Notes: generated by a model not told the origin, from the letters alone. Counted from the first letter of the stretch, positions 2,243 through 23,538 are shown. The stretch is DNA of 23,538 nt from a bacterium (GCA_046331705.1 JAXLQJ010000032.1:62001-85538), one strand, 5' to 3'. Numbers and translations are program-made.

Positions 2243-2437
2243 CAGCGGTGCCACAGCGCGTCCGCGCCGCAGGCCGCGAACGCCCGGTGCGCCCGCGACG
2301 TCGCCCAAAACCAGCTTTCACGCCCGCAATACCACTCGCGTTTGCACCGGCTCGTACCGCACTGCGTCAGCCGGGACGCGGTATGAACATTGCTGTAAGG
2401 CAGCGCGGCTGATTATCGTCTGAGGAGAAATCGCTCG

Positions 2438-4996
2438 ATGCCTCCCCCCCAAGGCTCGTCGTTGGCGCACCGCGTGGAACCCGAGCCCACTCGTCGCAAC
2501 ATCGCAGCGCCGCGCCCCACCGCGGCGGCGGTCCGCCAGCTCCCGACACCGGCGGCGGTCACGTCGAGCCGCATGCGGACGCTCGTCGCCGACGAGGACG
2601 AGGCTTCGCGCTCGATGCTCGAACGGGTGCTCGGCTCGCGTGGTCACGACGTGACGGCGTGCGCCGACGCCGACACCGCGTGGACGCTGTGCCAGGCCGA
2701 CCCTCCCGCGCTGCTGGTGGTGAGCGCCGGCCTGCTCGACGCCCACGGCGTGCCGCTGACGCGTCGGATCCGCGCCATCCCCGGGGGCGACCGAACCGTC
2801 ATCCTGGCTCTCACGGCGAGCGCCGAACCGGTGTCGCTGCAAGCGCTGCTGCAGGCAGGCTGCAACGACTACATGGCGCGCCCGCTCGAGGAAGCGCTGC
2901 TCAAGGTGCGATTGGCCATCGCGGAGCTGGGCGTGCGTCAAGAGACGCGCGCCAAGCACACGGTCGAGTCCGCGCGGCGCCTCTCGTTCGCCGTCGATCA
3001 GAGCCCGGCGGCCGTCATCATCGCCGACCCCAAGGGCAACATCGACTACGTGAACCCGAAGTTCACCCAGCTCACGGGCTTCTCGCACGCGGAGATCCTG
3101 GGCTCGCGGTTGCTCGAGCTCTCCGACCTCACGCTCGAGGAGAAGGCCAAGTTCTGGGAGACGATCGACCGCGGCCTCGAATGGCGCGGCGAGTTCCGTT
3201 ACAAGCGCCGTAACGGCGACTACTACTGGGCGTCGGCGTCCATCTCGCCCGCGCGCGGCACCAACGGCAAGACCGCGTACCTCGTGGAAGTGCACGAGGA
3301 CATCACCGAGCGCAAGCGCGTCGAGGACGCGTTGCGCGCCGGCGACGAGCGTTATCGCGCGCTCGCCGACAACGCCTACGACTTGATCTGCGAGATCTCC
3401 GTGGACGGCCGCTTCCTCTACGTGAGCCGCAACTACCGCGAGGTGCTGGGATACGAGATCGACGACCTCGTCGGCCGCGAGATCTTCGCGCTCATCCATC
3501 CCGAGGATCGCCCCAAGGTGATGGAGCGCTTCGTGCGCGCCGTGCAGAGCGAGGCCCCGAGCAGCCCGCGCGGCGAGCAGCTCGTGTTCCGCTATCGCCA
3601 CAAGAACGGCCAGTACCGGTGGTTCGAGTCGGTGGGCCGCGCCTACCGCAGCGCCGATCGCGAGTCGCGCCGCTTGGTGGTCGCGCGCGACATCACCGAG
3701 CGCAAGCGCGCCGAGGACCAGCAGCGCGAGCTCACGGAAAAGCTCCAGAGCATGAACACGCGGCTCGAGACCATGACCTTGGTCGATCCGCTCACGGAGC
3801 TGCTGAATCGCCGCGGGCTGCAGCAGGTGCTGACGCGCGAGATCGACGTCGCGCGGCGCGCGGGCACCGAGCTCTTCGTGCTCTTCGTGGACCTCGACGA
3901 CTTCAAGAAGATCAACGACACCCTCGGCTACGCCGTCGGCGACGTGGTGCTCAAGGAGGTCGCGCGGAAGCTGCGCGCCAGCATGCGCGGCACCGACCAC
4001 GTCGCGCGCATCGGCGGCGACGAGTTCATGGTGCTGCTGCCGCGCAGCCGCACCGCGGAGGCGATCCGCGTCGCGGAGCGCGCGCGCATCGCCGTCTCCG
4101 GCTCGCCGGTGTTCCTCTCGTCCGGGACCGTGACCGTGACCGCGAGCCTCGGCCTCGCGCTGGTCTCCCACGACACGCCCTCGATCGACGAGCTGCTCTC
4201 GCAGACCCACGTGCTGCTCAGGCAGAGCAAGCTCGGCGGCAAGAACCGGCTCTCCTACGACGTCGGCATGAACGAGAACGAGCCGGACGGGGCGAGCCCG
4301 CAGGGCGACCTCATCGATCTGTTGCGGCGGGGCGAGGGGCTGAAGACCGTGTTCCACGCGATCTATCGCCTGGTCGACGAGGCGATCGTCGGCCACGAAT
4401 GCCTGACGCGCTCCACCATCCCCGCGTTCGAGCGCCCCGACCACTTCTTCCGCATCAGCCAGGAAGCCAACATCCTCACGCCGGTCGACCATCACTGCTT
4501 CAAGACGGCGCTCGCCGCGACCGCCGATCGCGACCCCTCGTTGCGCTTCCACATCAACCTGCTGCCGTCGACGATGATCGACATCCCGGTGCAGCACCTG
4601 CTCGAGGCCTTCCCCACCAGTCGACCGCATTCGAGCTATTGCATCGAGATCAGCGAGCAGCAGATCATCGGCGACCCCTCGTACCTGCGCGAGCCGGTGA
4701 ACGAGCTCAAGCGCGCGGGGGTGCTGATCGCCATCGACGACGTCGGCTTCGGACGAAGCTGCCTGGAGTCGATGGTCTTGCTCGAGCCCGACATCGTGAA
4801 GATCGACCGCAAGGTGGTCTCGGGAATCGGCAGCGATCCATCGCGCGCCAACGTGCTCAAGCGGATCTTCCACGTGGCCAAGGTGCTGGGCGCGGACGTG
4901 GTGGCCGAGGGCATCGAGACCCGCGACGAGCTTCGCATCCTGCTACAGCTCGGCGTCTCGTACGGCCAGGGCTTCCTCTGGGGCAAGCCGGCATAG
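2438..4996 (+). CDS. Diguanylate cyclase/phosphodiesterase: pseudo-REC - PAS - PAS - GGDEF - EAL (852 aa)
   Basis: DPLTELLNRR, DLDDFKKIND and RGTD-HVARI-GGDEF mark the cyclase. EAL motifs are ECLTR, INL, IEISE, IAIDDVG, IVKID, VAEGIET and GQGF. Two PAS/PAC units end in DITERKR. GAGGAG lies upstream of the ATG. Confidence 0.93.
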   Translation: MPPPQGSSLAHRVEPEPTRRNIAAPRPTAAAVRQLPTPAAVTSSRMRTLVADEDEASRSMLERVLGSRGHDVTACADADTAWTLCQADPPALLVVSAGLLDAHGVPLTRRIRAIPGGDRTVILALTASAEPVSLQALLQAGCNDYMARPLEEALLKVRLAIAELGVRQETRAKHTVESARRLSFAVDQSPAAVIIADPKGNIDYVNPKFTQLTGFSHAEILGSRLLELSDLTLEEKAKFWETIDRGLEWRGEFRYKRRNGDYYWASASISPARGTNGKTAYLVEVHEDITERKRVEDALRAGDERYRALADNAYDLICEISVDGRFLYVSRNYREVLGYEIDDLVGREIFALIHPEDRPKVMERFVRAVQSEAPSSPRGEQLVFRYRHKNGQYRWFESVGRAYRSADRESRRLVVARDITERKRAEDQQRELTEKLQSMNTRLETMTLVDPLTELLNRRGLQQVLTREIDVARRAGTELFVLFVDLDDFKKINDTLGYAVGDVVLKEVARKLRASMRGTDHVARIGGDEFMVLLPRSRTAEAIRVAERARIAVSGSPVFLSSGTVTVTASLGLALVSHDTPSIDELLSQTHVLLRQSKLGGKNRLSYDVGMNENEPDGASPQGDLIDLLRRGEGLKTVFHAIYRLVDEAIVGHECLTRSTIPAFERPDHFFRISQEANILTPVDHHCFKTALAATADRDPSLRFHINLLPSTMIDIPVQHLLEAFPTSRPHSSYCIEISEQQIIGDPSYLREPVNELKRAGVLIAIDDVGFGRSCLESMVLLEPDIVKIDRKVVSGIGSDPSRANVLKRIFHVAKVLGADVVAEGIETRDELRILLQLGVSYGQGFLWGKPA

Positions 4997-5191
4997 GTCC
5001 GCGGCCCTCGATTCGGCGCGCGGCCGTCGGGCCGCCACGGCCCTACGGCTCGCGCGGCGAGCCGCCCCCCCCCGCGACGAAACTCGCAGGGCTGGCCACA
5101 CTTGCCCGCCCGGGTGACGGCGGGTGGTGATCCACCGTGCGGGATCGACCATCCCGGCAGCCACCGCGCGACGAACGGAAGGCCTCGGTAG

Positions 5192-8100
5192 ATGCCCCAG
5201 CCCCCCCGGTCCGGCGTTCGGGAAGCGACCACGCGAGTGGTGGTCGGCCGTCGCATCGAAGACCTCGGCGCACGCATCTCGGCGCGCTTCGCGATGGGCG
5301 AGGACGTCGACGACGCGATCGCGGCGACCCTCGGGGACCTCGGCAACCATCTCGGCGCGGTGCGCGTCTCGCTCTTCCAGCTGCGGCCGGACGGCGACTG
5401 GATCGATGCGAGCCACGAGTGGTATCGCCACGATCACGGCCCCGCTCTCGTGCTCAACCAGAATCTCGCGTGCACCCATCAGGCGTGGTGCATGCGACAG
5501 ATCGACGCCCACGGCTTCGTGCGGCTCGCATCGGTCGCGCAGATGCCCGAGGAGGCGTGCGACGAACGGCGGCTGCTGAGCGCGCGCGGCGTCGAGTCGC
5601 TGCTGGCCATGGCGGTGCCGATCGGCAGCACCGTCGGCGGCATCATCCGCATCGACAACCCGACCACCGATGGAGTGACGCTCGAGCGGACCCTCACGCT
5701 GGCGCGACACGCGGCCCACGTGATCGGCCTCGCGTTGTCACGGCGGCGCACGGAGGAAGAGCTGCGCTGGCACGTGCGGCTCGACGAGCTGGTGATGCGG
5801 GCCGCCGCCACGCTGCTCGAGGCCACGCCGGAGAGCATCGACGCGGCGATCACCGGGATCCTCACGGAGCTCGCGACCACGCTGGGCGCGGACATCGGCT
5901 ACGTCCTCGACCGCGCCGACGACGTGCAGGCGCGCGTGATCACCCACGTGGGACGCTCGGCCCAATCCCCCGCTTTCCCCGCTCCCGATCCGCGCGATCT
6001 CGACTGGCTCGAGCTCGACGCCACGCACGACGATCAGGTGCTGGTCCGGCGCCGGAGCGGGTCCGAGCCGACACTCGACCGAGCCTCGGCCGCTACGATC
6101 GGCGGCGAGGAGTCCCGGGCGCTGGTCGCGACGTTTCGACGCGAGCCCTCACGGCGCGGCACGCTGGTGTTCGAGGTGCGGGGCGCGCGGCGCAACTGGG
6201 GCCGTGACACGCAATCCTCCACGCGCATCGCCGCGGGCATGATCGCCAGCGCCCTGCACCGCACCGACGCGGTGCGGGCCCTGCGCGACAGCGAAGCGCG
6301 TTTCCGACTGCTCACCGAGTCGGCGCACGACGCGATCGCCGAGTTCACCGCCGAGGGCATCTGTCTCTACGCGAACCGTCGCCACTGCGAGATCCTGGGC
6401 CTCGAGCCGAGGATGCTGGTGGGCGAGCCGCTGCTGCCCCTCGTGCACCCGGACGATCAGGCATCCGTCATCGCGAGCTTCGTCGAGGCCCGCGAGCACC
6501 GATCCTCGGCGCGCGGCGTCATCCGCTTCCGCGATGCCCGCGGCGGTTATCGCTGGCTCGAGACGGTCGGCACCTGGTTCACGGCGGCGAGCGGCGAGGA
6601 ACGCGTGGTCGGCGTGTCGCGCGACGTCACCGACGCACGCGCCGGCGAGGAGGAGCTTCGCCGCAGCGAAGCGCTGCGCCGCGCCATCACCGACCACTCG
6701 ATCGACATGATCACGGTGGTGCGCTCGGACGGCACGATCGCCTTCCAGAACCTCGCGGCGGATCGCGTCCTGGGCTACGCGTTCGAGGAGCTGGGAGACG
6801 TCACCGCCGAGCAATTCGTCCATCCCGACGACCTGGAGCTCGCGTGGAGCGGTGTCCAGGCGTGCGTTTCCAGCCGTGGGCAGCCCATCACCGCGGAGCT
6901 GCGCGTGCGTCGCAGGGACGGCGACTGGCGCACCGTGACGGCGACCGCCATCAACCTCATCGGCGATCCGGGCGTGGACGGCATTCTCGTCATGTCGCGG
7001 GACGTGACCGAGCAGCGTCAGACCGAGCAGGCGCTGCGCCGGCGCGAAGACGAGCTTCGCCAGGCGCAGAAGATGGAGGCCATCGGACGGCTCGCCGGCG
7101 GAGTGGCTCACGACTTCAACAACATGCTGTCGGTGGTGCAATGCCACACCGACATGATGCTCTCCGATCTGCCGACCGATCACCCGATGCGCGACGGCAT
7201 CGGATCGATCCGCGACGCCGGGCTGCGTGCCGCGGCGCTGACCCGCCAGCTCCTGGCGTTCAGCCGCAAGCAGGCCTTCGTCCCGCGGCCGGTCGACGTC
7301 TCGGGCGTCGTCACGGCGGTCTCCAAGATGCTCAAGACCCTGATCGGCGAGGACGTTCGTTTCGACGTCCGGCTGGCCACCGATCTGCCGACCGTGCTGA
7401 TCGACGTGGGCTACCTGGAGCAGGTCCTGATGAACCTCGCGGTCAACTCCCGCGACGCCATGCCACAGGGCGGCGAGCTGCGCATCGAGACCGAGAAGGT
7501 CGACGGCGCGGGCGCGCACGGGGCCGCGCTCGGCGCCGGCGACTGGGTCCGCCTCTCGGTCATCGACTCCGGCTGCGGCATGGACGCCCAGACGCTGCAG
7601 CACGCCTTCGAGCCGTTCTTCACGACCAAACCCCGCGACAAGGGCACCGGGCTCGGGCTCGCCACCGTCTACGGCATCGTCAAGCAAAGCGGCGGCGAGA
7701 TCACCGTGTCCTCCCAACCCGGGCTCGGCACCCGCTTCGACATCTTCCTGCCGAGCGCGACCAGCGAGCCCGAGCCCATCGCCGAGGGCGTCGCGCCCGT
7801 GGCCACCGAGTCTCGTGGCCACGACACGATCCTGCTCGTCGAGGACGAGCCCACGGTTCGCGAGATCGCGGCGCAGGTGCTGGAGTCGGGCGGATTCCGG
7901 GTGCTGTCCGCAGGGAGCGTCGCGCAGGCGGTGGGGGTGATCGACTCCGCCGTCACGATGCCGGCGCTGGTGGTGAGCGACGTGGTGCTGCCGGACGGCA
8001 GCGGCGTCGACGCGGTGCGCGCCGCGCGCCTGCGTTGGCCCAGCGTGCGCGTGCTGCTGATGTCCGGGTACCTGGACGACATGCTCGACTCGCGCGGCCT

Positions 8101-8218
8101 CGAGGAGCTCGGCGCGGCGCTGCTCGAGAAGCCGTTCAACCCCGCGGCGCTGTTGCGCGCGGTGCACGACGCGATGGACGCGGCGAGCCCCGCGCCACCC
8201 GCTCGTTGGCCCGGCTGA
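5192..8218 (+). CDS. Cytoplasmic hybrid sensor histidine kinase: two GAF-like - PAS - PAS - HisKA - HATPase - REC (1008 aa)
   Basis: H-box QAQKMEAIGRLAGGVAHDFNN, N-box EQVLMNLAVNSRDAM, DSGCGM, FEPFFTTK and GTGLGL. C-terminal REC has LLVEDE...SDVVLP...MSGY...KPF. The N-terminal GAF-like region includes SHEW and GVESLLAMAVP. No TM helix seen. Confidence 0.92.
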   Translation: MPQPPRSGVREATTRVVVGRRIEDLGARISARFAMGEDVDDAIAATLGDLGNHLGAVRVSLFQLRPDGDWIDASHEWYRHDHGPALVLNQNLACTHQAWCMRQIDAHGFVRLASVAQMPEEACDERRLLSARGVESLLAMAVPIGSTVGGIIRIDNPTTDGVTLERTLTLARHAAHVIGLALSRRRTEEELRWHVRLDELVMRAAATLLEATPESIDAAITGILTELATTLGADIGYVLDRADDVQARVITHVGRSAQSPAFPAPDPRDLDWLELDATHDDQVLVRRRSGSEPTLDRASAATIGGEESRALVATFRREPSRRGTLVFEVRGARRNWGRDTQSSTRIAAGMIASALHRTDAVRALRDSEARFRLLTESAHDAIAEFTAEGICLYANRRHCEILGLEPRMLVGEPLLPLVHPDDQASVIASFVEAREHRSSARGVIRFRDARGGYRWLETVGTWFTAASGEERVVGVSRDVTDARAGEEELRRSEALRRAITDHSIDMITVVRSDGTIAFQNLAADRVLGYAFEELGDVTAEQFVHPDDLELAWSGVQACVSSRGQPITAELRVRRRDGDWRTVTATAINLIGDPGVDGILVMSRDVTEQRQTEQALRRREDELRQAQKMEAIGRLAGGVAHDFNNMLSVVQCHTDMMLSDLPTDHPMRDGIGSIRDAGLRAAALTRQLLAFSRKQAFVPRPVDVSGVVTAVSKMLKTLIGEDVRFDVRLATDLPTVLIDVGYLEQVLMNLAVNSRDAMPQGGELRIETEKVDGAGAHGAALGAGDWVRLSVIDSGCGMDAQTLQHAFEPFFTTKPRDKGTGLGLATVYGIVKQSGGEITVSSQPGLGTRFDIFLPSATSEPEPIAEGVAPVATESRGHDTILLVEDEPTVREIAAQVLESGGFRVLSAGSVAQAVGVIDSAVTMPALVVSDVVLPDGSGVDAVRAARLRWPSVRVLLMSGYLDDMLDSRGLEELGAALLEKPFNPAALLRAVHDAMDAASPAPPARWPG

Positions 8219-8390
8219 GCGCGGCGCGCCGGGCCGACCCGCCGCGCCGAACCCGTCTTCCGCCGCTCGATCGGCTCACGCGCCTTCGGTCGCTCCTTCG
8301 GTCCACGTCCACGGCCTCTTGCGACAGCGGTCTCGGGCCGTGCAAGATGGCGCGCGCACGAAGAAATCCTCGTAGTTCGGGCCCCCACAC

Positions 8391-10001
8391 ATGGTCGACC
8401 TCGACAACATCGTGGCTCTGCTCGACGACCCCGCCACCGAGCGTCGGGTCGCCGCAGCCATCGTCCTCGGGGCGCTCAAGCCCAAGAGCGCTGCCGTGGT
8501 CGAGGGGCTCCTCGGGCTGCTGGAGACCGGCGAGCCGGCGCTGATCCGTCACGGGCTCGATGCGCTCGCGGCCCTCGGCGCACGCAAGGCCGCGCCCGCC
8601 ATCGTGGGGTTCCTCTCCTCGCGCGACGTCGAGATCCGCGACGCGGCAGAGCGCGCGCTGGTCGCGATCGGCGAATCGGTGGTTCCGCTGATCCGCGAAC
8701 GCATGGAGAAGGCGGCGCCCGAGGAGCAACGCGCGCTCAACCACGTGCTCGCGGAGCTGGGTGGCGCGGAAGCGTTCTCGACGCTCTTGAGCGGCATTCT
8801 CGCCTCCGAGGGAGATCCGCAGGCGGCGCTGGCGGCGCGCCAGCAGGTGCGCTCGGCGGACGCCTCCTTGCGCAAGAAGTACCTGGCGCAAACGGAGCGC
8901 TTCCTGGCCGAGCAACGCAAGGGCGGCGAGCATCCCGGCGCGGTCGCCGCGGCGATCAAGGTGCTGGGCTTCCTCGAGGACCCCAAGGCGGTGCCGACGC
9001 TGCTCGCCCACGCGCAAGCCGCCGACCAGCCTCCCGCCGTGCGCAAGGAAGCCATCATCGCGTTGCGCTTCGCGCTGCAGAACGGGCGCTCGCCGTCGGC
9101 CGAGGTGGTGAACGCGCTGGTCGGCGCGGCGCTCGCCGAGGACCGCTCGCTCGCGCAGACCGCGCTGCTCACGCTGGGCGGGCTGGATCTCGACGCCCAG
9201 CAATCCCAGCGCATCCAGAAGCTGGCCGAGCATCCGGATTTCGAGCGCGCGCGGCTCGCCATCGAGCACCTGGGACGTCAGCGCGACACCCACGCGGCAC
9301 GGGTGCTGGCCAACGTGGTCGAGCACGCCGACCGACGGCGCGCCGAGCTTGCCGTGCAGACCCTGGCGAGCAAGGCGGAAGGCGCGGAGCCGCTCGCGAA
9401 AGCGCTCATCGCCACCGCCGATGCCGAGCGCGCGCGCTTCATCGCGAAGGCCTTGGCACCGCACCTGCGCACGCTCGCGCCCGCGCTCAAGAAGCAGTTG
9501 CGCGCCCAGGGTCTCGCGCGGCTCGGCGCCGGCGAGGGTGGCGCCGAGGCCTTGCTCGACGCGGCGCGCATGGCCGACCCCGGTGCTTGGGTCGACGAGC
9601 TGCGCGCGCTGGCCGCCAAGCAGCGCAAGGCCGCGAAGCTCGAGGAGGCGCTGCGCACCCTCGGGGTGCTGTGCCGAAGCGATCAGGCGACCGACGAGGA
9701 TCGCTACCACCGCGCGGCGCTCGAGCTCAAGCGCGCGCGCCACGATCGCGCGACCGGGGCGCGCGCCCACGACCCTTCCCTCTCGACGCTCGGCCAGCTC
9801 CTGACCCGCGGCTTCGACGTGGGCGCGGCGCTTCGCAAGGACAAGTCGATCGGGCTCGAGGAGCTCTACTACGTCGGCTTCCACTTCGCCGAGCGGGGGC
9901 AACCGCTCGGGATCGAGCTTCTCGAGGCCGTGGTCGCGAAGGCCGGTCGCGCCAAGCTCGGCAAGATGGCCAAGAACAAGTTGGCGTTGATCGCGGACTG
10001 A
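8391..10001 (+). CDS. HEAT-repeat (alpha-solenoid) protein (536 aa)
   Basis: Repeated HEAT-like units such as LLDDPATERRVAAAIVLG, LSSRDVEIRDAAERALVAIG, LGFLEDPKAVPTLL and AVRKEAIIAL. Strong GC3 codon bias. No catalytic motif recognised. Confidence 0.8.
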   Translation: MVDLDNIVALLDDPATERRVAAAIVLGALKPKSAAVVEGLLGLLETGEPALIRHGLDALAALGARKAAPAIVGFLSSRDVEIRDAAERALVAIGESVVPLIRERMEKAAPEEQRALNHVLAELGGAEAFSTLLSGILASEGDPQAALAARQQVRSADASLRKKYLAQTERFLAEQRKGGEHPGAVAAAIKVLGFLEDPKAVPTLLAHAQAADQPPAVRKEAIIALRFALQNGRSPSAEVVNALVGAALAEDRSLAQTALLTLGGLDLDAQQSQRIQKLAEHPDFERARLAIEHLGRQRDTHAARVLANVVEHADRRRAELAVQTLASKAEGAEPLAKALIATADAERARFIAKALAPHLRTLAPALKKQLRAQGLARLGAGEGGAEALLDAARMADPGAWVDELRALAAKQRKAAKLEEALRTLGVLCRSDQATDEDRYHRAALELKRARHDRATGARAHDPSLSTLGQLLTRGFDVGAALRKDKSIGLEELYYVGFHFAERGQPLGIELLEAVVAKAGRAKLGKMAKNKLALIAD

Positions 10002-10191
10002 ACGACGGATCGGAAGTCGTGCGAGCCATGGGGCACGCTCGGGCGAGCGGCGCAGCGCGCGAAAGCCGGGCTCGGAACCTCTCGGGGCCGAGCCGCGGCG
10101 CGTCGCCCGAGGCTCGCTCCCCGAGTCACGGCGCTCGGCGGCCGTTGCCGCGCGCGTCGACGTGCTCGCGCCGGTTTCCACCGGATCGCCC

Positions 10192-13100
10192 ATGAAGCTC
10201 TCGCAGAAGACCCTGCTCGCGATCGGGCTGCCGCTGGTCTTCTTGGTGATGCTGCTCTTCGCGCTCTCGCGCCAGACCCTCCTCGAGAGCTACACCCAGT
10301 TCGAGATCCGCGACACCGAGCGCGACGTCGACCGCGCCGTGAACTCGATCCACGAGCACGTCGCCAAGATCCAGAGCCACCTCACCGACTGGGCGGCGTG
10401 GAGCGCCACCTACGAGTTCATGCAGAGCCGCGACCCGGCGTATCTGGAGGAGAACATCTCGGGGGGCCTCACCCTCGAGGACCTCGGCATCCACTGGATG
10501 GCGTACGTCGCGCCCTCGGGCGAGCTCGTCTACACGAGGGCGATCGATCCCGCGCGCGACTTGCCCGCGATCGTCGACTTCCCCGCGGGCGTGCTGCCCC
10601 ATCTGGCGCCAGGCCACACGCTGGTCGCGCACACCGCCGTCACCGACCAGGTGATGGGCTTTTTGCTCGTGCCCGAGGGCGTCCTGGCGGTGGCGTCACA
10701 GCCCATCCTCACCACCAGCCACGAGGGCCCGATCCGCGGCTCGCTGGTGTGGGGCCGATTCCTCACGGATCGCGACGTCATGGAGATCGCCGATCTCACC
10801 CACCTGCGCATCAGCGTCCGCCGCCACGGCGATCCCGCCATGCCGCCCGACATGCAGCGCGCGAGCGTCGAGCTCGGGGCGGCACCGGCGCGCGACGGCG
10901 GGCGAGTGACGGTGGTCCACGCGATGACCGACGAGACCGTCGCCGGCTACGCGCTGATCCCCGACATCGAGGGCAAGCCCGCGCTGGTGGTGCGCGTCGA
11001 CTCGCCGCGCACGCTGTTCCAGCAAGGCCGCGCGAGCATCCGCGCCTCGCTCGCGTGGCTGATCGCGTGCGGCGCGATCTTCGGCGTGGCCGTGGTGGCG
11101 GCGCTGCGAGGCCTGGTGCTGCTGCCCGTCACCCGCCTGGCGAGCGAGCTCGAGGCGATCGGCGCGGGCGGCGATCCGGGTCGGCGCGTGAACGTGGTCG
11201 GCCACGACGAGATCGCGCGGCTCGCCGTCTCGGCGAACCAGATGCTCGCCGATCTCGAGCGCAGCCAAGGCCAGATCCAACGGCGGGAGCGCTACTTCCA
11301 CGCGCTCATCGATCAGACCTCCGACGTCATCGCCGTGACCGGAGTCGATGCGCGCATTCGCTACGTGAACCAGGCGTCACGAACGATGTTCGGCTACGAG
11401 CCCGCCGAGCTCGAGGGGCGCAAGGCCTTCGATTTCGTGCACCCCGACGACAAGAAGGTCATCTGGGAGCTCTTCGCCCAGGGCATCCAGCCGGGCACCA
11501 CCGCGGCGCGCGACTTCCGCTTCCGTCACAAGGACGGCACCTGGCACTACGTCGAGGCCGCGGGGCGGCTCCTGCTCGACGACCCCGCGGTCGACGGCGT
11601 GATCGTCGCCATCCGTGACATCACCCGCCGCCGGCAGACGGAAGAGGAGCTGCGACAGGCGCGTGTGGCCGCCGAGTCGGCCAATCGTGCCAAGTCGGCG
11701 TTCCTGGCCAACATGAGTCACGAGCTGCGCACACCGCTCAACTCGATCATCGGCTTCTCGGAGCTACTCCAGGAGCAGACGTTCGGCCCGCTCGCGCCGA
11801 AGCAGCTGCGCTACGTCGGCAACGTCCTCGCCAGCGGCAAGCACCTGCTGCAGCTCATCAACGACATCCTCGATCTGTCGAAGATCGAGGCCGGTCACAT
11901 GAAGCTCGAGATCGGGACGCTCGACGTGGCCGCCGTGCTGGAGGACGTGCGCGCCATCGTCCACACCCTCGCCGCGAAGAAGAACGTCACGCTCGAGCTC
12001 GGCACCGGAGGGGCGATCCCCACGCTTCGCGCCGACTCGGCGAAGTTCCGGCAGGTGCTCTACAACCTGCTCTCCAACGCCATCAAGTTCACTCCCGAGG
12101 GCGGCGTGGTGCGCACCCACGTGCGGCTCGCCGGCGATGCGCGCGGCGCGCCGCCGCGCGCGGGCGCCGCGGCCGAGTTCGTGTGCATCGCCATCGCCGA
12201 CTCGGGGATCGGCATCCGCTCCGAGGACCGCGCGCGACTCTTCCGCGAGTTCGAGCAGCTCGACTCCGGCTATTCACGCCAGCAGCAGGGCACGGGGCTC
12301 GGGCTCGCGCTCTCCAAGCGTCTGGTCGAGATGCACGGCGGCGAGATCGGGTTCGAGAGCGAGGGCGAGGGCCGCGGCACCACGTTCTGGTTCACGCTAC
12401 CCATCGCCGGCCCGCGCGAAGCGCCGATACCGGCGCCGCGGCGCGCCGACGAGCCCAAGACCACGCAGATCGTCGGGCCCCATTCGCCGCTGGTGCTGGT
12501 GGTCGAGGACGACCTCACCTCGGCGGCGCTGCTCAAGGAATGCTTCACCATCGCTGGCTATCGGGTCATCCACGCGGCCGACGGTGCCACCGCGCTCGCG
12601 CTCGCGGCGGAGAAGCAGCCCCGCGCGATCACCCTCGACATCATGTTGCCGGGGATGGACGGCTGGACGGTCCTCAAGGCGCTGAAGAGCAAGCCCGAGA
12701 CGGAGTCGATTCCGGTCATCATCGTCTCCTCCACCGAGGACCACGAGCTCGGCTTCACGCTGGGCGCCACCGATTGCCTGGTGAAGCCCACCGACCACCG
12801 GCGCATCCTCGAGATCCTGCGCAACGTGACCGGCGTCGACCGCGGCGAGGATCGCGCCGTGCTCGTCATCGACGACGACCCCGCGCTGCGCTCGCTGCTC
12901 GAGGACACCCTGGGTGCCCAGGGCTACCGCGTCACCTCCGCTCCCGACGGCGAGCGCGGCATGGAGCTCGCCGCCCGCTGGCAGCCGGACGTGATCGTGC
13001 TCGACCTGATGATGCCCGGGCTCACCGGCTTCGACGTCGTGACCCGCTTGCGCGAGCGCAGCGACTCGCGCGATCTTCCGATCATCATCTACACCGTGAA

Positions 13101-13224
13101 GGATCTCACTCCCGAGGAGCGCACGCGCCTCATGAGCCAGGTGCAGGCGATCGCCACGAAAGGGAGGCCCGCGGACCTCGTGGATGTGCTACGCCGACTG
13201 GGGCTCGGGGTGGCGCGAGCGTAG
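10192..13224 (+). CDS. Membrane hybrid histidine kinase: TM - CHASE4 - TM - HAMP - PAS - HisKA - HATPase - REC - REC (1010 aa)
   Basis: N-terminal TM, CHASE4-like DWAAWSATYEF...YLEEN, second TM and HAMP (PVTRLA...DEIARLAVSANQML). Kinase motifs are AKSAFLANMSHELRTPLN, NLLSNAIKFT, DSGIGI and GTGLGL. Two RECs follow (LDIMLP...KP; LDLMMP). Start placed at ATG 10192 rather than GTG 10162. Confidence 0.93.
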   Translation: MKLSQKTLLAIGLPLVFLVMLLFALSRQTLLESYTQFEIRDTERDVDRAVNSIHEHVAKIQSHLTDWAAWSATYEFMQSRDPAYLEENISGGLTLEDLGIHWMAYVAPSGELVYTRAIDPARDLPAIVDFPAGVLPHLAPGHTLVAHTAVTDQVMGFLLVPEGVLAVASQPILTTSHEGPIRGSLVWGRFLTDRDVMEIADLTHLRISVRRHGDPAMPPDMQRASVELGAAPARDGGRVTVVHAMTDETVAGYALIPDIEGKPALVVRVDSPRTLFQQGRASIRASLAWLIACGAIFGVAVVAALRGLVLLPVTRLASELEAIGAGGDPGRRVNVVGHDEIARLAVSANQMLADLERSQGQIQRRERYFHALIDQTSDVIAVTGVDARIRYVNQASRTMFGYEPAELEGRKAFDFVHPDDKKVIWELFAQGIQPGTTAARDFRFRHKDGTWHYVEAAGRLLLDDPAVDGVIVAIRDITRRRQTEEELRQARVAAESANRAKSAFLANMSHELRTPLNSIIGFSELLQEQTFGPLAPKQLRYVGNVLASGKHLLQLINDILDLSKIEAGHMKLEIGTLDVAAVLEDVRAIVHTLAAKKNVTLELGTGGAIPTLRADSAKFRQVLYNLLSNAIKFTPEGGVVRTHVRLAGDARGAPPRAGAAAEFVCIAIADSGIGIRSEDRARLFREFEQLDSGYSRQQQGTGLGLALSKRLVEMHGGEIGFESEGEGRGTTFWFTLPIAGPREAPIPAPRRADEPKTTQIVGPHSPLVLVVEDDLTSAALLKECFTIAGYRVIHAADGATALALAAEKQPRAITLDIMLPGMDGWTVLKALKSKPETESIPVIIVSSTEDHELGFTLGATDCLVKPTDHRRILEILRNVTGVDRGEDRAVLVIDDDPALRSLLEDTLGAQGYRVTSAPDGERGMELAARWQPDVIVLDLMMPGLTGFDVVTRLRERSDSRDLPIIIYTVKDLTPEERTRLMSQVQAIATKGRPADLVDVLRRLGLGVARA

Positions 13225-13257
13225 GCGGCGGCAGGCGAGCCGCGACGAGGGATGCGC

Positions 13258-13641
13258 ATGGCGGGTGAGAAGGTCTTGCTGGTCGAGGATCAACCGCTGA
13301 ATCGCGAGCTGGCGACCGACCTGCTCGAGATCGCCGGCTTCACGGTCTGCCAGGCCGAGTCCGGAGAGCGGGCCATCCAGGTCGCGCGCGCCGAGTCCCC
13401 GGGCATCATCCTGATGGACATCTCCCTTCCCGGCATGGACGGGCTCGCCGCGACGCGCATCCTGCGCGCCGACCCCCGCTTCCGCAGCGTGCCGATCGTG
13501 GCGCTCACCGCGCACGCGATGAAGGGCGACGAGGACCGCGCGCTCAACGCGGGTTGCGACGGCTACATCACCAAGCCCATCGAGACGGCCTCGTTCGCCC
13601 AGCGGGTGACCGAGATCCTGGCGCGCGGTCGGCCGGCGTGA
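13258..13641 (+). CDS. Single-domain response regulator, DivK/CheY-like (127 aa)
   Basis: VLLVED...ILMDISLPGMDG...PIVALTAHAMKGDE...GCDGYITKPI, with all catalytic residues present. GAGGG spacing favours ATG 13258 over 13252. Confidence 0.93.
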   Translation: MAGEKVLLVEDQPLNRELATDLLEIAGFTVCQAESGERAIQVARAESPGIILMDISLPGMDGLAATRILRADPRFRSVPIVALTAHAMKGDEDRALNAGCDGYITKPIETASFAQRVTEILARGRPA

Positions 13642-14768
13642 CCGCTCCTGCCGACGCCACCCCTCACATCCCCAAGTCGCGGCTGCGGCCCTGGGTCCCG
13701 GGCCAGCCGTTCGACGCGGCGACCGAGAAGATCTTCCGCCGGCGCCGGATCGATCGCGCGCTGCCGGTGATCCGATTCGCCTGCGTGGGCGCGTGCATCA
13801 TCTTCGGGTCGTTCTTCCTGCGCGATCGCTATCTCGCCCCCGACCAGGAGCGCCTGACCCTCGCGATCCGCTCCGTCGCGTGCGTCTTCTACCTCGTCAT
13901 GATGCGGGTCGCGCGGGTCGAACGGCTGCGCGACCACATCCCGCTCTTCGTGCCGGTCGCGGCGGGCGCCGGATCGGTCTTCGTCTCGCTCTTGTGCGCG
14001 GCCTTGCCGAACGGTTTCGACATCGGCATCGGCGGGCCGCTGCTGGTGGTCATGGCGGCGCCCGCGGTCTCGCCGTCGGCGCCGGCGGCGATCCTCACGT
14101 GTCTCGTCGGCGTGCTCGTGCCGAACGTCGGCATGATGCTCAACCGCGACGGTTGGCTGACCATCTTCAGCACCAACCACTACCTCGTGATGGGCGCGGC
14201 GCTGTCGATGGGAATCGCGATCCTCGTCGAGCGCGACGCGCGGCGCGCGTTCCGTCGAGGCCTCGAGCTCGAGACCGCCGCCACCACCGACCCGCTCACC
14301 GGCGTGTTCAACCGCCGGCGCGTCCTCGAGCTCGCCGAGGCCGAGGTCGCGCGCGCCCGCCGTTACGGCCACGCGCTGTCGGTGGTGATGTTCGACCTCG
14401 ACCACTTCAAGCAGATCAACGATCGCCACGGCCATTGGGGCGGCGACCACGTGCTGCGCGCGTTCCCGATCCGGCTCGAGAAGCACCTGCGTCGCAACGA
14501 CACGCTGGGCCGGCTGGGGGGCGAGGAGTTCGTGATCGTGCTACCCGAGACGGATCGCACGGCAGCGGCGGCGGCCGCCGAACGGGTGCGGGCCGCGATC
14601 GCCGCGGAGTCGATCCCGATCGGCAGCTCGTCCGTGACGCTCACCTTGAGCGCGGGTTGCGCGGAGCTCGCGCCCGACGACGTCGCGTTCGAGCCTCTGC
14701 TGCGCCGCGCCGACGCCGCGCTCTACGCCGCCAAGCGCGCCGGCCGAAACCGCGTCGAGCTCGGCTGA
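13638..14768 (+). CDS. Integral-membrane diguanylate cyclase (about 5-6 TM helices plus GGDEF domain, 376 aa)
   Basis: Hydrophobic N-terminal half, then TDPLTGVFNRR, DLDHFKQINDRHGH..GD, I-site RRND, GGEEF and ADAALYAAKRAGRN. GTG start overlaps the upstream TGA (13638-13641). Confidence 0.9.
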   Translation: MTAPADATPHIPKSRLRPWVPGQPFDAATEKIFRRRRIDRALPVIRFACVGACIIFGSFFLRDRYLAPDQERLTLAIRSVACVFYLVMMRVARVERLRDHIPLFVPVAAGAGSVFVSLLCAALPNGFDIGIGGPLLVVMAAPAVSPSAPAAILTCLVGVLVPNVGMMLNRDGWLTIFSTNHYLVMGAALSMGIAILVERDARRAFRRGLELETAATTDPLTGVFNRRRVLELAEAEVARARRYGHALSVVMFDLDHFKQINDRHGHWGGDHVLRAFPIRLEKHLRRNDTLGRLGGEEFVIVLPETDRTAAAAAAERVRAAIAAESIPIGSSSVTLTLSAGCAELAPDDVAFEPLLRRADAALYAAKRAGRNRVELG

Positions 14769-19771: not shown

Positions 19772-20725
19772 ATGGACCTGCGCGTCAAAGCCGTCGACGT
19801 CACCAAGCTGCGCGGCCGGCTGCCGGACCCCGCCAACGTCTGGCGCCCGGCGCTGTTGATCCTGCTGCTGATCTTGCTGCCGAGCGTGATGATCGGCGCG
19901 GTCGGCATCCTGGTGCTGGTCTTCCAGCGCGGCAGCGTCGACGTCGTCCTGGGCGTGCTCATCCTGGCGTTCTGCGCAGCGCTGGGTGCCGGCATCGTGC
20001 TGACGTTCGGCTCGATCCGCCGCCGCGCCCAGCTCTCCGCGCTTCAGACCGCGTTCGTGTCCAAGGTCTCGCACGACCTCCGCACACCGCTCACCAGCAT
20101 CCGGATGTTCGTCGAGACGCTGCAGATGGGGCGCATCCACGATCCCGAGCGCTACAACGAGTGCCTGAACGTGCTCGCTGCGGAAACCGAGCGGCTGTCC
20201 TCGATGATCGATCGGCTGCTCGACTGGGCGCGCATGGAGGCCGGCCGCAAGATGTACCGCTTCGCGCCCACCCCCGTCGGCGAGGTCGTCGAGCGCGCGG
20301 TGACGGCGTTTCGGCCGCAGACGCTGAGCGGCACCGTCCAGCTCGGCGTCGAGGTCGAGCCCGATCTCCCGCTCATCCGCGCCGACGCGGAGGCGCTCGC
20401 GGAGGTGGTGCTCGACCTGCTCAACAACGCCTACAAGTACACCGGCGACGAGAAGCGTATCCAGGTGCGGGCCCGCCGCGATGGACGTCACGTGGTACTT
20501 TCGGTCACCGACAACGGCCCGGGAATCCCACGCTCCGAGCACGTGCGGATCTTCGATCGCTTCTATCGCGGCGCGGAGCCGCAGACACGAGCCATCGAGG
20601 GCAGCGGGCTGGGCTTGGCGATGGCGCGCCACACCATCGAGGCGCACAACGGCACCATCCATCTCGAGAGTGAGCCAGGACGCGGCAGCACGTTCAGCAT
20701 CGTGCTGCCGGGCGGGCGAGACTGA
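19772..20725 (+). CDS. Small two-TM sensor histidine kinase (HisKA-HATPase, 317 aa)
   Basis: Two hydrophobic helices joined by QRGSVD. Kinase motifs are SHDLRTPLTSIR, LLNNAYKY, DNGPGI, FDRFYR and GSGLGL. Start placed at ATG 19772 within ORF 18821..20725. Confidence 0.92.
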   Translation: MDLRVKAVDVTKLRGRLPDPANVWRPALLILLLILLPSVMIGAVGILVLVFQRGSVDVVLGVLILAFCAALGAGIVLTFGSIRRRAQLSALQTAFVSKVSHDLRTPLTSIRMFVETLQMGRIHDPERYNECLNVLAAETERLSSMIDRLLDWARMEAGRKMYRFAPTPVGEVVERAVTAFRPQTLSGTVQLGVEVEPDLPLIRADAEALAEVVLDLLNNAYKYTGDEKRIQVRARRDGRHVVLSVTDNGPGIPRSEHVRIFDRFYRGAEPQTRAIEGSGLGLAMARHTIEAHNGTIHLESEPGRGSTFSIVLPGGRD

Positions 20726-20727
20726 CG

Positions 20728-21447
20728 ATGGCCAGCAATCATCGCAAAGCACGCATCCTGCTGGTGGAGGACGACCACTCGATCCTGCGCGGGCTCGAGC
20801 TCAACCTCGGCGTCGAGGGCTACGAGGTGGGGACCGCCGCCGAAGGCAAGACCGGGCTCAAGCGCGCCATGGAGGAGAGCTGGGACCTCATCGTCCTCGA
20901 CATCATGATGCCGGGCCCGGACGGACTGGAGATCCTGCGACGCGTTCGCGCGGCCAGGAAAGAGACCGGCGTGATCTTGCTATCGGCGCGCGGCGCCGAG
21001 TTCGACAAGGTCGTGGGCCTCGATCTCGGTGCCGACGACTACCTGACCAAGCCGTTCGGCCTCGCCGAGCTGCTGGCGCGGATCAAAGCGGTGCTGCGGC
21101 GTCGCAGCCAGGCCCCCGCCCCCACCGGCGAGCCGATCTCCCAATTCGGTGACGTGCAGGTCGATCGCGAACGCCGGCGCGTCACCAAGGCCGGTCGCGA
21201 GGTGGCGCTCACCGCTCGCGAGTACGAGGTCCTCGAATACTTCCTCACGCGCGAGGATCGCGTCGTGACTCGCGAGGACTTGCTCGAGAAGGTGTGGGGC
21301 TTCGCGAACCTGGAATCGAACCGCACCGTCGACAACTTCGTTTCCCAGCTCCGCGCCAAGCTCGAAGCCAACGCCGATCAGCCGGTTCACTTCCTCACGG
21401 TGCGCGGCGTGGGCTATCGGTTCGTGGCACGACCCGAGACGCGGTGA
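20728..21447 (+). CDS. OmpR/PhoB-family DNA-binding response regulator (239 aa)
   Basis: REC has LLVEDD...LDIMMP...LSA...GADDYLTKPF. Winged helix has LTAREYEVL...RTVDNFVSQLRAKL...TVRGVGYRF. Starts 2 nt after the kinase stop. Confidence 0.96.
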   Translation: MASNHRKARILLVEDDHSILRGLELNLGVEGYEVGTAAEGKTGLKRAMEESWDLIVLDIMMPGPDGLEILRRVRAARKETGVILLSARGAEFDKVVGLDLGADDYLTKPFGLAELLARIKAVLRRRSQAPAPTGEPISQFGDVQVDRERRRVTKAGREVALTAREYEVLEYFLTREDRVVTREDLLEKVWGFANLESNRTVDNFVSQLRAKLEANADQPVHFLTVRGVGYRFVARPETR

Positions 21448-23216
21448 CCCGCGGCGCGCGCAAGCTCGACGCGGCGCTCACGGCGCTCGCGTTCGGGGAG
21501 CACGTCCGGGGGGCGCGCGCGGTGGACGTGGGCGCCTCGACCGGCGGCTTCACGCGCACCTTGCTCGACGCCGGCGCCGCGGAGGTGCTGGCGGTGGACG
21601 TCGGTCACGGTCAGCTCGATCCCGCATTGCGCCGCGACCCACGCGTGCGGGTCCTCGAGCGCGTCGACTGGAAGCGACTGCCGCCGTCGATCGAGCCAGG
21701 TCCCTTCGACGTGTTCACCATCGACGTGAGCTTCACCGCCGCGCGCACCATGCTGCGCGGGCTGGCGTTCCGCCTGCGGCCGGGCGCCCACGGGCTCGTG
21801 CTCGTGAAGCCGCAATTCGAGCTTCCCGAGGGCGCCGTCGAGCCCGGCGCTCCCGGCGACGCCAGCGTGCGCGCCCGGGCCCTGGAACGATTTCGCGCCA
21901 AGGCCGAGCGGCTCGGCTTCACCATCCTCGGCGCGGTCGACTCGTCCGTACCCGGCGGCAAGGGGACGATCGAGCTCTTCGCCCATCTGCGCTTCGACGG
22001 CTGGCAGGCGCGACCGGGCGCGCCCGCTGCCACCGCTACGACGACCAGCGCTCCCGTCGAACCGACCCGGGGCGAGGCGCCTGCGATCGCAACCGCGACC
22101 CGGCTCATGCGCTGGTTCGCGATCACCGCGCCGGGCCTGGAAGGGATCGCCGAGGTCGAGGTGCGAGGCCTCGCCGGCGTGAGCGACGTGCAAGCCAACG
22201 AGGCGGGAGTCGGCTTCGGCGGGACCCTCGAGACCGGGCTCCGCGCGAACCTCGAGCTGCGCACGGCAACCCGGGTGCTGGCGCGCGTGGGCACCTTTCG
22301 CGCCGAGGACTTCGCGTCGTTTCGTCGCCGTGTGGGCGGCCTCGACTGGTCGCCGTTCCTCCGCGCCGAGCAGCCGCTCGAGGTCCAGGCGAGCGCGCGC
22401 CGCTGCCGCCTCTTCCACACCGATGCCGTGCGCGAGAACGTCGAGCAGGGCCTGCGCGACTGGGCCCGCAAGCACCCGCCGGCCGGAGCGCCGGCGGCCC
22501 AGCCGCTGCGCATCGCCGCGCGCGGCTCGTCGAATCGCTGGACGCTCAGCGTCGACGCCTCGGGCGAGCTCTTGCACCGGCGCGGCTGGCGAACCGAAGC
22601 CGTCCGCGCGCCGCTGCGCGAGACGCTCGCCGCCGCGTTGCTCGAGCTTTGCGAGTGGCGCGGCGTGACGCCGCTCGTCGATCCGATGTGCGGCGCGGGG
22701 ACGCTGGTGATCGAGGCCGCGGCGCTGGCGGTGCGTCGAGCGCCTGGCCTCGAACGCCGCTTCGCGTGCGAGGACTGGCCGTGCTTCGACGCAGCGCTCG
22801 GCGAACGCCTGCGCGCGGAGCTGCGCTCGCGCGAGCTCGAGGTGGCGCCGGTGCCGATCGTCGGCTACGACCGCGACCCCGCCGCCGTGCGTCTCGCGCG
22901 CCGCAACGCCGAGCGCGCGGGGCTCGCCGCGAGCATCGCGTTCCACCACGGCGACCTCGCGAGCGTGCGCGCCACCGGCGCGACGGGACTGCTGATCGTG
23001 AACCCGCCCTACGGCCGCCGGCTCGGCGATCCCGCCCAGGCGCGCGAGACCTTGCGCGCGCTCGGGCAGCTGCTCACCGCGCGGTTTCGCGGCTGGAACG
23101 CCGCCGTGCTCGCCCTCGACCCGAGCTGGGCGCGCGCGCTCGGGCTCGAGCCGACGCGGACGACGGCGCTGCGAAACGGCGGGCTGCGCGTTCACCTGCT
23201 TCAGTTCGCGCTCTGA
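21444..23216 (+). CDS. Fused RNA methyltransferase: TlyA-like FtsJ domain (no S4) plus THUMP/RlmL-like N2-methylguanine methyltransferase (590 aa)
   Basis: N-terminal part: TRGARKL, DVGASTGGFT, AVDVGHGQL, DVSF, LVKPQFE, GKGTIE. C-terminal part: APGLE, NLELRTATRVL, DASGELLHRRGWR, APLRETLAAALL, DPMCGAGT, NPPYG. GTG start overlaps the regulator's TGA (21444-21447). Confidence 0.88.
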   Translation: MTRGARKLDAALTALAFGEHVRGARAVDVGASTGGFTRTLLDAGAAEVLAVDVGHGQLDPALRRDPRVRVLERVDWKRLPPSIEPGPFDVFTIDVSFTAARTMLRGLAFRLRPGAHGLVLVKPQFELPEGAVEPGAPGDASVRARALERFRAKAERLGFTILGAVDSSVPGGKGTIELFAHLRFDGWQARPGAPAATATTTSAPVEPTRGEAPAIATATRLMRWFAITAPGLEGIAEVEVRGLAGVSDVQANEAGVGFGGTLETGLRANLELRTATRVLARVGTFRAEDFASFRRRVGGLDWSPFLRAEQPLEVQASARRCRLFHTDAVRENVEQGLRDWARKHPPAGAPAAQPLRIAARGSSNRWTLSVDASGELLHRRGWRTEAVRAPLRETLAAALLELCEWRGVTPLVDPMCGAGTLVIEAAALAVRRAPGLERRFACEDWPCFDAALGERLRAELRSRELEVAPVPIVGYDRDPAAVRLARRNAERAGLAASIAFHHGDLASVRATGATGLLIVNPPYGRRLGDPAQARETLRALGQLLTARFRGWNAAVLALDPSWARALGLEPTRTTALRNGGLRVHLLQFAL

Positions 23217-23253
23217 TCCCCGCGGCGCCGAGCAGCGCGCGCCCCGCGCTCGG

Positions 23254-23538
23254 TCAGCCGAGACGCAGCCAGACGAGCAAGGCGCCGAGCGCGAGACCCA
23301 GCCCCGCGATTCCGAGCGCAGCCTGGGATCCGACGCGCTGCGCCTCCGCGAGCTCGTCCTGGGGAGTGGTCGAGAGCACGAAGGGTTGCGCGCGCGTCCC
23401 CGGCGCGATCAAGCGCAGCATCCCGAGCGACGGCCCGACCGACGGCGCGTCCTCGCTCGGGTCGGCGTCGGCGTCGCGCTCCTCGTCGGCGTCCTCGTCC
23501 TCGACCGGCAACGCCAGCTCACCGAGCGCGTACAGAGG
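23254..23538 (-). CDS. 3' end of a membrane-anchored protein entering from the right edge; possibly GIDE-domain-like
   Basis: Frame is open from 23538: PLYALGEL...acidic tract...QPFVLSTTPQDELAEA, then a C-terminal TM helix and TGA at 23254-23256. The family call rests only on the LYALG...PFVLS pattern. Confidence 0.6.
   Translation of the reverse strand, partial: PLYALGELALPVEDEDADEERDADADPSEDAPSVGPSLGMLRLIAPGTRAQPFVLSTTPQDELAEAQRVGSQAALGIAGLGLALGALLVWLRLG

Follow-up and report, generated by a model that had tools for sequence, protein, structure and literature searches.

Can a ribosomal RNA (rRNA) methylase that has lost its own means of finding a target be given a new one by fusion to a second methylase? 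The question is raised by one gene, P0001, in a 23,538-nucleotide stretch of bacterial DNA (GCA_046331705.1 JAXLQJ010000032.1:62001-85538; the window), whose product carries two S-adenosylmethionine (SAM)-dependent modules in one chain. The N-terminal third (N-module) is a TlyA-like catalytic domain, and the C-terminal two thirds (C-module) are of RlmL type. This fusion is a real, conserved and lineage-wide gene family of uncultured Myxococcota-like bacteria, and it is not rare. Its members count as fused rRNA methylases built around RlmL rather than as a new type of system. By analogy with known enzymes, we consider it fairly probable that the protein is a bifunctional SAM-dependent RNA methyltransferase made from two fused rRNA-methylase lineages, in which an RlmL platform tethers a TlyA-derived domain.

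The first-pass annotation of the window had proposed a single open reading frame with two SAM-dependent modules, and this was upheld. The 590-codon frame has no internal stop, and Pfam scans match PF01728 (FtsJ) over residues 1-184 (E 1.4e-22, profile positions 2-181 of 181) and PF01170 (UPF0020) over residues 380-584 (E 8e-45). Relatives were collected with two search patterns, both in the N-module. Of the 391 pattern hits, 371 encode a relative (one genome per species), and counts out of 80 refer throughout to the best 80 of these 371 matching species-level genomes. The motifs reported in both modules lie at the places named in the annotation. In the N-module, the catalytic Lys/Asp/Lys/Glu tetrad consists of K7 in RGARK, D94 in DVSF, K122 in VKPQFE and E177 in GTIE, accompanied by the SAM motif DVGASTGGF. 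The C-module carries DPMCGAGT (413-420) and NPPY (520-523). Ten residues are invariant in 80/80 members: the whole tetrad, as the annotation's claim of an intact K-D-K-E set would have it, together with D413, C416, G417, G419, N520 and P522. P521 is kept in 78/80, while Y523 of NPPY is Tyr in 74 and Trp in six. Judged from these patterns, both modules appear to be under selection and both active sites look catalytically competent.

The protein begins where a TlyA would have just finished its S4 domain. For the full frame there are only two in-frame start codons, at 21294 and 21444, both GTG. The GTG at 21444 overlaps the TGA of an upstream response-regulator gene, reading GTGA. The stretch that begins at 21294 lies inside that regulator gene, in another frame, does not resemble S4 and is not matched in other members of the family. 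Translation from the internal ATG at 22107 alone had been raised as a possibility. Met222 is kept in only 9/80 members, so an internal start there is not a feature of the family. Pfam finds no S4 domain (PF01479) in P0001 or in any of the 80 members, and 1 to 38 residues, most often 10, precede the first catalytic Lys. The NCBIfam TlyA models TIGR00478 and NF049952 match P0001 only from their positions 56 and 58 to the end, i.e. over the part that follows S4, with scores below their cut-offs (100.4 bits vs 185.8, and 101.5 bits vs 250).

What remains is recognisably TlyA. The N-module motifs align with the catalytic residues of Mycobacterium tuberculosis TlyA, and identity to solved TlyA C-terminal domains is 44-45%, with 126 bits to that of M. 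tuberculosis TlyA (5ks2). Foldseek places the modelled N-module on the M. tuberculosis TlyA catalytic domain 5kyg with a template-modelling (TM) score of 0.81, a root-mean-square deviation of 2.1 and 45% identity. The residue numbers of TlyA are those of PMC9168844, carried over by alignment to the M. tuberculosis protein. P0001 starts at the equivalent of Val63, the final residue of TlyA's four-residue interdomain linker (60-63, including Trp62). The annotation was therefore right that S4 is absent and that the protein begins directly after its position. TlyA Arg65 corresponds to R3 (78/80), and Phe157, which stabilises base flipping, to F97 (79/80). Arg137 corresponds to K77, with a basic residue in 77/80. 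The Tyr115 position holds His, Arg or Lys in 70/80, and Gly232 and Gly235, which flank Ser234, are kept in 80/80. TlyA targeting depends on its S4 domain, which docks at helix 69, and Arg6 and Arg20 of its N-terminal domain are essential for methylation of the 50S subunit (PMC9168844). Because these catalytic-domain residues are kept and S4 is gone, the fusion has TlyA chemistry and part of its RNA-contact surface, but not the address label. In a midpoint-rooted tree, 20 N-modules form one group (SH-like approximate likelihood ratio test, SH-aLRT, 100; branch 0.61) against 30 canonical TlyAs, namely the genome's own TlyA and 29 chosen from the N-module homologue matches. Outside the fusion family, the closest relatives are ordinary S4+FtsJ TlyAs, 45-51% identical.

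The C-module is a complete unit of RlmL type. PF22020 (RlmL_1st) matches residues 225-279 (E 1.7e-12) and is present in 80/80 members. The first-pass annotation had described a module of THUMP, DPMCGAG and NPPY, of which the two motifs are plainly present. THUMP was not found by sequence: PF02926 gives no match in P0001 at E<=1, and matches 5/80 members at E<=0.01. Residues 281-379 align to THUMP in the RlmL-type protein that the genome encodes separately, and Foldseek sets the modelled C-module on the standalone RlmL-type structures 3ldg, 3ldu and 3k0b with TM scores of 0.89-0.90, over 374-379 columns of structures of 377-380 residues. Since the model aligns over the whole of these structures, a THUMP domain is supported by the predicted fold. 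TrmN (3tma) and Trm14 (3tm5) are lower fold matches, with TM scores of 0.81 and 0.75. Against solved structures, the C-module scores 169 bits with Smu472 (3ldg), 164-169 with 3ldu/3k0b and 149 with RlmKL. The RlmKL model NF008748 matches at its positions 4-380 of 704 (245.9 bits vs a cut-off of 466), compared with 106 bits for the Trm14 model, and Pfam finds no match in P0001 to PF10672, the RlmK half (COG1092).

The activity of these relatives is informative. We take position 2553 to be the counterpart of Bacillus subtilis position 2582. A 2026 preprint (PMC13232135) assigns B. subtilis YpsC to N2-methylguanosine (m2G) at 2474 in B. subtilis numbering. This becomes 2445 by a constant offset of 29, with 2582 and 2603 in the preprint set, enzyme by enzyme, against 2553 and against 2574 (PMC10798245). 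Smu472 has been shown to make m2G2445, is described together with YcbY-N as "functionally equivalent" in this respect, and makes a modification described as highly conserved in bacteria (PMC3367195). As the RlmL-like half is most like Smu472, an m2G2445 enzyme, a novel site of guanine methylation is far from certain.

Between the two modules lies the Ala/Pro/Thr-rich linker that the annotation had pointed out. The AlphaFold model of P0001, made with an 80-sequence alignment, has a mean predicted local distance difference test (pLDDT) of 89.7 and a predicted TM score (pTM) of 0.66, and its only disordered part is residues 191-213 (pLDDT <50). Between the flanking conserved Phe residues, the linker measures 29-71 residues (median 35). 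A basic motif, approximately LPxPGExR, directly follows the N-module (around residues 190-200) in most Polyangia-type members; it is missing from the window's clade, which has the Ala/Pro/Thr-rich linker instead. Compared with P0001, 76 distant members have an identity of 0.60 over the N-module, 0.51 over the ferredoxin-like domain, 0.44 over the THUMP-like region and 0.53 over the methyltransferase domain, and the value for the linker is 0.10. The N-module is thus the best-conserved part, above all others.

The family is widespread within a limited range of lineages. In the best 80 of the 371 loci, the N-module is joined to the RlmL part in one frame in 80/80, each starting at or before residue 72 and ending at or after residue 331, and two separate genes, which would have counted against the annotation, do not occur there. 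All 80 come from metagenome-assembled genomes (MAGs), whose labels read Myxococcota, Polyangia, Myxococcales, 'delta proteobacterium' or the like. The window's GTDB phylum consists of six genomes, and the fusion is in 6/6, one copy (G003) being cut by two contig ends. In another phylum, the order to which genome G006 belongs has matches in 68 of its 89 genomes, comprising 56 full-length proteins, nine partial ones that cross the junction and three with the C-module only; the fusion is therefore present, complete or across its junction, in 65/89. Matches fall to 19 of 151 sampled genomes in the class of G006. Among 201 genomes drawn evenly from its phylum, G006 itself is the only match.

Protein databases tell the same story. 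A search of 5.8 billion proteins gave 1557 matches among 8000 scored candidates, with at least 120 homologues of 554-660 residues, about 50% identical, each carrying FtsJ, RlmL_1st and UPF0020. The ESM Atlas holds one 136-member cluster with this domain set. In an exhaustive HMMER search, the N-module matched 51 cluster representatives with E<=1e-30. Up to row 30 (E<=3e-35), the longer proteins (433-694 residues) mostly match at their extreme N-terminus, and the shorter ones look like fragments. From about the thirtieth row on, the matches are mainly canonical TlyAs of some 250 residues, matched from residue ~60. Short N-module matches at 57-71% identity are mostly fragments on short contigs, several of which include the start of the RlmL part. 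No convincing unfused gene for an S4-less N-module was found in the homologue searches, the relatives' genomes or the HMMER results. Six proteins of 354-482 residues (P0254, P0262, P0320, P0336, P0350 and P0379) have a TlyA-like catalytic domain in their C-terminal half, with two matched stretches in P0254; they may be further fusions or have mis-called starts. The ESM Atlas also contains RlmL-type units with other partners, such as a 579-residue cluster with a MEKHLA domain, mostly from Planctomycetota. From these fusions with other partners, RlmL seems to be a recurrent fusion platform.

Independent assemblies bear on the continuity of the junction. Public contigs from four runs were compared across the gene, and no indel within it is listed in any of them. 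Contig X1 (record 1), which may derive from the source sample, spans 21300-23300 with three substitutions and no gaps, and contig X7 (record 15), from another study, bridges the linker over 21797-22136 without a difference. The linker is thus crossed without indels in contigs of two studies. Run X5 has no contig over 21836-22036, which is unusable as evidence of a gap. Split fusions occur only at contig ends (G003) or in one assembly that reads in two frames (G010). In the latter case (G010:C6:2169174-2170996), and in a truncated fusion with an internal TGA (G217:C8:532485-534002), either an assembly error or a decaying copy is possible.

The fusion coexists with separate versions of both its parents. 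The window's genome, a metagenome-assembled draft of 118 contigs that is 95.7% complete, has the separate full-length tlyA that the first-pass annotation had suggested looking for. It encodes a canonical TlyA (S4 + FtsJ, 235.2 bits, above the cut-off) and adjoins an open frame of ~300 codons with DDxxD motifs, which we take to encode a polyprenyl synthase. A standalone RlmL-type protein of 387 residues, in which THUMP can be recognised, is encoded there as well. Identity of the fusion is 45% to the TlyA (from TlyA residue 64) and 31% to this standalone protein. The best solved relative of the latter is E. coli RlmKL (166 bits vs 103-130 for the Gram-positive proteins). The C-module has the reverse pattern, since with it the Gram-positive structures outscore RlmKL. 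The fusion is therefore a paralogue, distinct from both canonical TlyA and E. coli-type RlmL. All three genes are present in 6/6 genomes of the window's phylum. Among five Polyangia-type carriers, a TlyA-like gene is found in 5/5 (the G008 match being partial) and a second RlmL-type gene in 4/5; in G007, the fusion is the only UPF0020 protein.

Four relatives point to how the fusion arose. In these (L096-L099, in G293, G243, G377 and G239), a C-type protein 43-49% identical is unfused, with no N-module within ~2 kb upstream, and each genome also has a second RlmL-type gene and a canonical TlyA. Because it occurs unfused in these relatives, the C-type protein can evidently work alone. The unfused state may be ancestral or secondarily reduced. 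It is likely that the second RlmL lineage came first, and that most of the group then gained a duplicate of the TlyA catalytic domain.

How might such a protein work? That the substrate is RNA, which region of rRNA is involved, that targeting depends on the tether and which two nucleotides are methylated are all points of inference; by analogy, the substrate is probably 23S rRNA. The C-terminal two thirds would be an autonomous RlmL-type enzyme that N2-methylates a guanine, most likely G2445 or one close to it in domain V of 23S rRNA, on an intermediate from early in assembly. The N-terminal third would be a duplicate TlyA catalytic domain, minus the S4 domain and interdomain linker that find helix 69. 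Held to the RlmL platform by a flexible linker of ~30 residues and so brought to a ribose near the guanine target, it would flip out a nucleotide there and 2'-O-methylate it, much as has been proposed for RlmK within RlmKL. There are precedents for this proposal. RlmL activity is raised by RlmK, and on helix 74 the two cooperate (PMC3351187). The COG1092 partner is suggested to have changed specificity after fusion, guided by the COG0116 part (PMC3367195), and RlmM combines THUMP with a TlyA/YiiB-like 2'-O-methylase that acts in domain V (PMC3488215). The cooperation of RlmK with RlmL, the guidance idea of Wang et al. and the RlmM precedent make such a tethered, bifunctional methylase plausible. 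The annotation's suggestion that THUMP may take over from S4 in targeting, possibly at a new site, would draw on analogy with RlmKL and RlmM and on the presence of canonical TlyA and RlmL-type paralogues beside the fusion. We are more tentative about a further step, and hold it as a possibility that may well prove wrong: that RlmL tethering has re-aimed the TlyA domain at a new ribose-methyl site which, with m2G, forms a pair made by no described enzyme.

Two known ribose methylases were considered as enzymes that the N-module might replace. A role as a stand-in for RlmE, which makes 2'-O-methyluridine at 2552 (Um2552), was rejected, as the two are not complementary. RlmE was not found in the six window-phylum genomes (completeness 74-100%; best match 26 bits vs a cut-off of 300), where solid FtsJ matches come from TlyA and the fusion only, but it is full length in 5/5 Polyangia-type carriers (166-183 bits). 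The window's genome yielded no RlmM gene; RlmM is rare anyway, matching in 4/14 control genomes. Its lack allows a role for the N-module like that of RlmM, which forms 2'-O-methylcytidine at 2498 (Cm2498), without supporting it.

Several observations weigh against a tethered, bifunctional rRNA methylase. The M. tuberculosis TlyA catalytic domain without the four-residue linker is deficient in SAM binding (PMC9168844). P0001 retains only the last of these four linker residues, and among 20 aligned member N-termini no conserved Trp is seen before the VGRGG motif. The position of TlyA Lys189 is Asp, Ser or Glu in 75/80 members. TlyA appears to recognise the mature 50S subunit (PMC9168844) and RlmKL works early in assembly (PMC3351187), so the N-module would need a different type of substrate. 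The pTM is 0.66 despite high pLDDT in both halves, and the model thus gives no confident fixed geometry between the active sites; further, the THUMP region is too diverged for Pfam in all but a few members. Most carriers have a second RlmL-type protein (6/6 and 4/5), and either paralogue might make m2G2445 or have moved to another site. There is no link to ribosome genes in the neighbourhoods of the 80 loci, and no cultured organism among them.

Other readings must be set beside this one. The fusion could act on a transfer RNA (tRNA) or small RNA, giving a tRNA both m2G and a methylated ribose. The acceptor ends of tRNAs are where THUMP enzymes such as Trm14/TrmN, Trm11 and ThiI bind, the model resembles both TrmN and Trm14, and with two RlmL-type paralogues in most carriers, one could have left the ribosome. 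We nevertheless regard a tRNA substrate as unlikely, given that the C-module favours the RlmL type by 246 bits to 106 among models, by 149-169 bits to 40 among solved structures, and in its TM scores; in G007, moreover, the fusion is the sole UPF0020 protein, and m2G2445 is highly conserved (PMC3367195). Nor do we find much to recommend a redundant spare copy that makes 2'-O-methylcytidine at 1920 (Cm1920), possibly Cm1409, and m2G2445, just as TlyA and RlmL do. It would explain why the N-module keeps equivalents of the helix-69 contacts Arg65, Phe157 and, by residue type, Tyr115 and Arg137, and why Smu472 is the closest match of the C-module. Against it, C1920 and G2445 belong to separate domains of 23S rRNA. 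The domain that bears the essential Arg6 and Arg20 (PMC9168844) is also missing in 80/80 members, and retention of the fusion beside canonical TlyA in 6/6 and 5/5 genomes (the latter including the partial G008 match) argues against pure redundancy.

It is also conceivable, if quite improbable, that only the RlmL-type half is enzymatic and that the TlyA-like half is a non-catalytic helper in RNA binding or folding. The N-terminal pseudo-methyltransferase domain of RsmC is a precedent (quoted in PMC3351187), the poor SAM binding of linker-less TlyA (PMC9168844) would fit, and the C-type protein does occur unfused in four relatives. Yet the N-module is the most conserved part, and its tetrad, SAM motif and Phe157 equivalent, kept in 79-80/80, form the pattern expected of an active enzyme. 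Many database entries instead imply a DNA N6-adenine methylase, and DNA amino-methylases have the NPPY motif too. The family carries this name as a legacy label, as does the solved structure 3k0b; the neighbourhood clusters contain no restriction or specificity genes, and Smu472, YcbY-N and B. subtilis YpsC make m2G in 23S rRNA (PMC3367195, PMC13232135). A DNA substrate is accordingly very improbable. Finally, a draft of 118 contigs assembled from a metagenome might have joined two adjacent genes in error. With the junction present in the best 80 of 371 loci, in 65/89 genomes of one order and in contig X7 of another study, and with no separate gene for an S4-less N-module in the genomes examined, such an artefact is scarcely credible.

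An RlmL-tethered TlyA domain would be of wider interest. Few rRNA methylases are fused; the textbook example is RlmKL. The present family is an independent second case of RlmL fusion, with a different partner. TlyA's known targeting mechanism has been deleted here, so that re-addressing of another methylase by RlmL becomes directly testable, and the family would, if the proposal is true, represent a natural experiment in retargeting an rRNA methylase by domain fusion. The family further points to a probable, hitherto undescribed 2'-O-methylation in the ribosomes of abundant uncultured bacteria of activated sludge and soil. The first-pass annotation knew of no described example of the architecture. 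A search of the literature (Creative Commons-licensed PubMed Central and bioRxiv) found no paper describing a TlyA/RlmL-type fusion, but the fusion is not rare, and databases have entries for it already, named generically or misleadingly: 'putative N6-adenine-specific DNA methylase', 'SAM-dependent methyltransferase' and 'TlyA family rRNA methyltransferase/putative hemolysin'. Its recognition corrects the 'DNA methylase' and 'hemolysin' labels of several hundred proteins.

The surroundings of the gene (Table 1) vary between clades. A response regulator adjoins the methylase in five loci of the window's clade and is absent from the other 75. The regulator match ends at the methylase start in L014-L016, and between a few and ~40 bases before it in L017 and L078. 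The upstream histidine kinase is likewise kept only in the window's clade. In that clade, the gene arrangement suggests co-transcription of kinase, regulator and methylase, and possibly signal-controlled expression. Because the gene ends a histidine-kinase/response-regulator operon, ribosome methylation in the window's clade might be switched on by a signal. Around Polyangia-type loci there are instead genes for a CBS-domain protein, a radical-SAM protein and an aminotransferase. Nothing in these neighbourhoods serves as a clue to function.

Table 1. Positions in the window of the fused gene, its parts and the adjoining two-component genes.
Feature	Position	Strand	Basis or remark
Histidine kinase, scanned part	19781..20725	+	HisKA, HATPase_c
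OmpR-type response regulator	20728..21447	+	Response_reg, Trans_reg_C; stop overlaps methyltransferase start
Fused methyltransferase gene P0001, 590 aa	21444..23216	+	Open frame, GTG start, TGA stop 23214-23216
N-module, aa 1-190, S4-less TlyA/FtsJ-type class I 2'-O-methyltransferase	21444..22013	+	PF01728
Linker, aa 191-221, Ala/Pro/Thr-rich, predicted disordered	22014..22106	+	pLDDT
RlmL ferredoxin-like domain, aa 222-280	22107..22283	+	PF22020
THUMP-fold region, aa 281-379, sequence diverged	22284..22580	+	Fold match
RlmL-type UPF0020 methyltransferase domain, aa 380-590	22581..23213	+	PF01170

Elsewhere in the window, positions 54-14768 contain a dense run of signalling genes (REC-PAS, REC-PAS-GGDEF-EAL, two hybrid histidine kinases, one of them with CHASE4, a single REC and MASE8-GGDEF), after which come a Rieske oxygenase, a NifU-like protein and a fatty-acid desaturase. 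In the metatranscriptomic library X17, a 252-base contig identical to 21580-21828, together with scraps, hints at expression of the fused gene but does not prove it.

Among described enzymes, RlmKL (YcbY of E. coli; m2G2445 and 7-methylguanosine at 2069, m7G2069) offers a close parallel in design. It, too, combines an RlmL-type unit with a mechanistically different second methyltransferase in one polypeptide, and the RlmL part of the fusion matches positions 4-380 of its model and structure 3v97. The partner in RlmKL is RlmK (COG1092), placed C-terminally after an EEHEE domain, whereas that of the fusion is TlyA-derived, N-terminal and attached by a disordered linker. RlmKL is found in Gammaproteobacteria and the fusion in Myxococcota-like MAGs. 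Standalone Gram-positive RlmL proteins (Smu472, 3ldg; YpsC) are the best match of the C-module in sequence and fold (169 bits, TM 0.89, 379 columns). Identity is only 31%, however, and the fusion adds an N-terminal methylase, has a THUMP region beyond the reach of Pfam and, unlike these proteins, coexists with a second, E. coli-type RlmL homologue.

The N-module has its own counterparts. TlyA (M. tuberculosis Rv1694, B. subtilis YqxC; 16S C1409 and 23S C1920) has a homologous catalytic domain with the same K-D-K-E tetrad and SAM motif, and with Arg65 and Phe157, whose equivalents the fusion keeps. It has an S4 domain and a full interdomain linker, while the fusion lacks S4 and keeps only the last linker residue. 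Further, the N-modules form a separate group in the tree, score below both NCBIfam cut-offs and exist beside the genome's own canonical TlyA. RlmM (YgdE; 23S Cm2498) resembles the fusion in joining THUMP to a TlyA/YiiB-like ribose methylase (PMC3488215). In RlmM, THUMP comes first and the FtsJ-type methylase follows, the opposite order to that of the fusion, and there is no second methylase. The RlmM model NF008734 barely registers P0001 (E 0.014, 14.8 bits vs a cut-off of 176, residues 21-71 only), and its structure 4atn is a poor fold match (query TM 0.24). RlmM shows that a THUMP domain can aim a catalytic domain of TlyA type.

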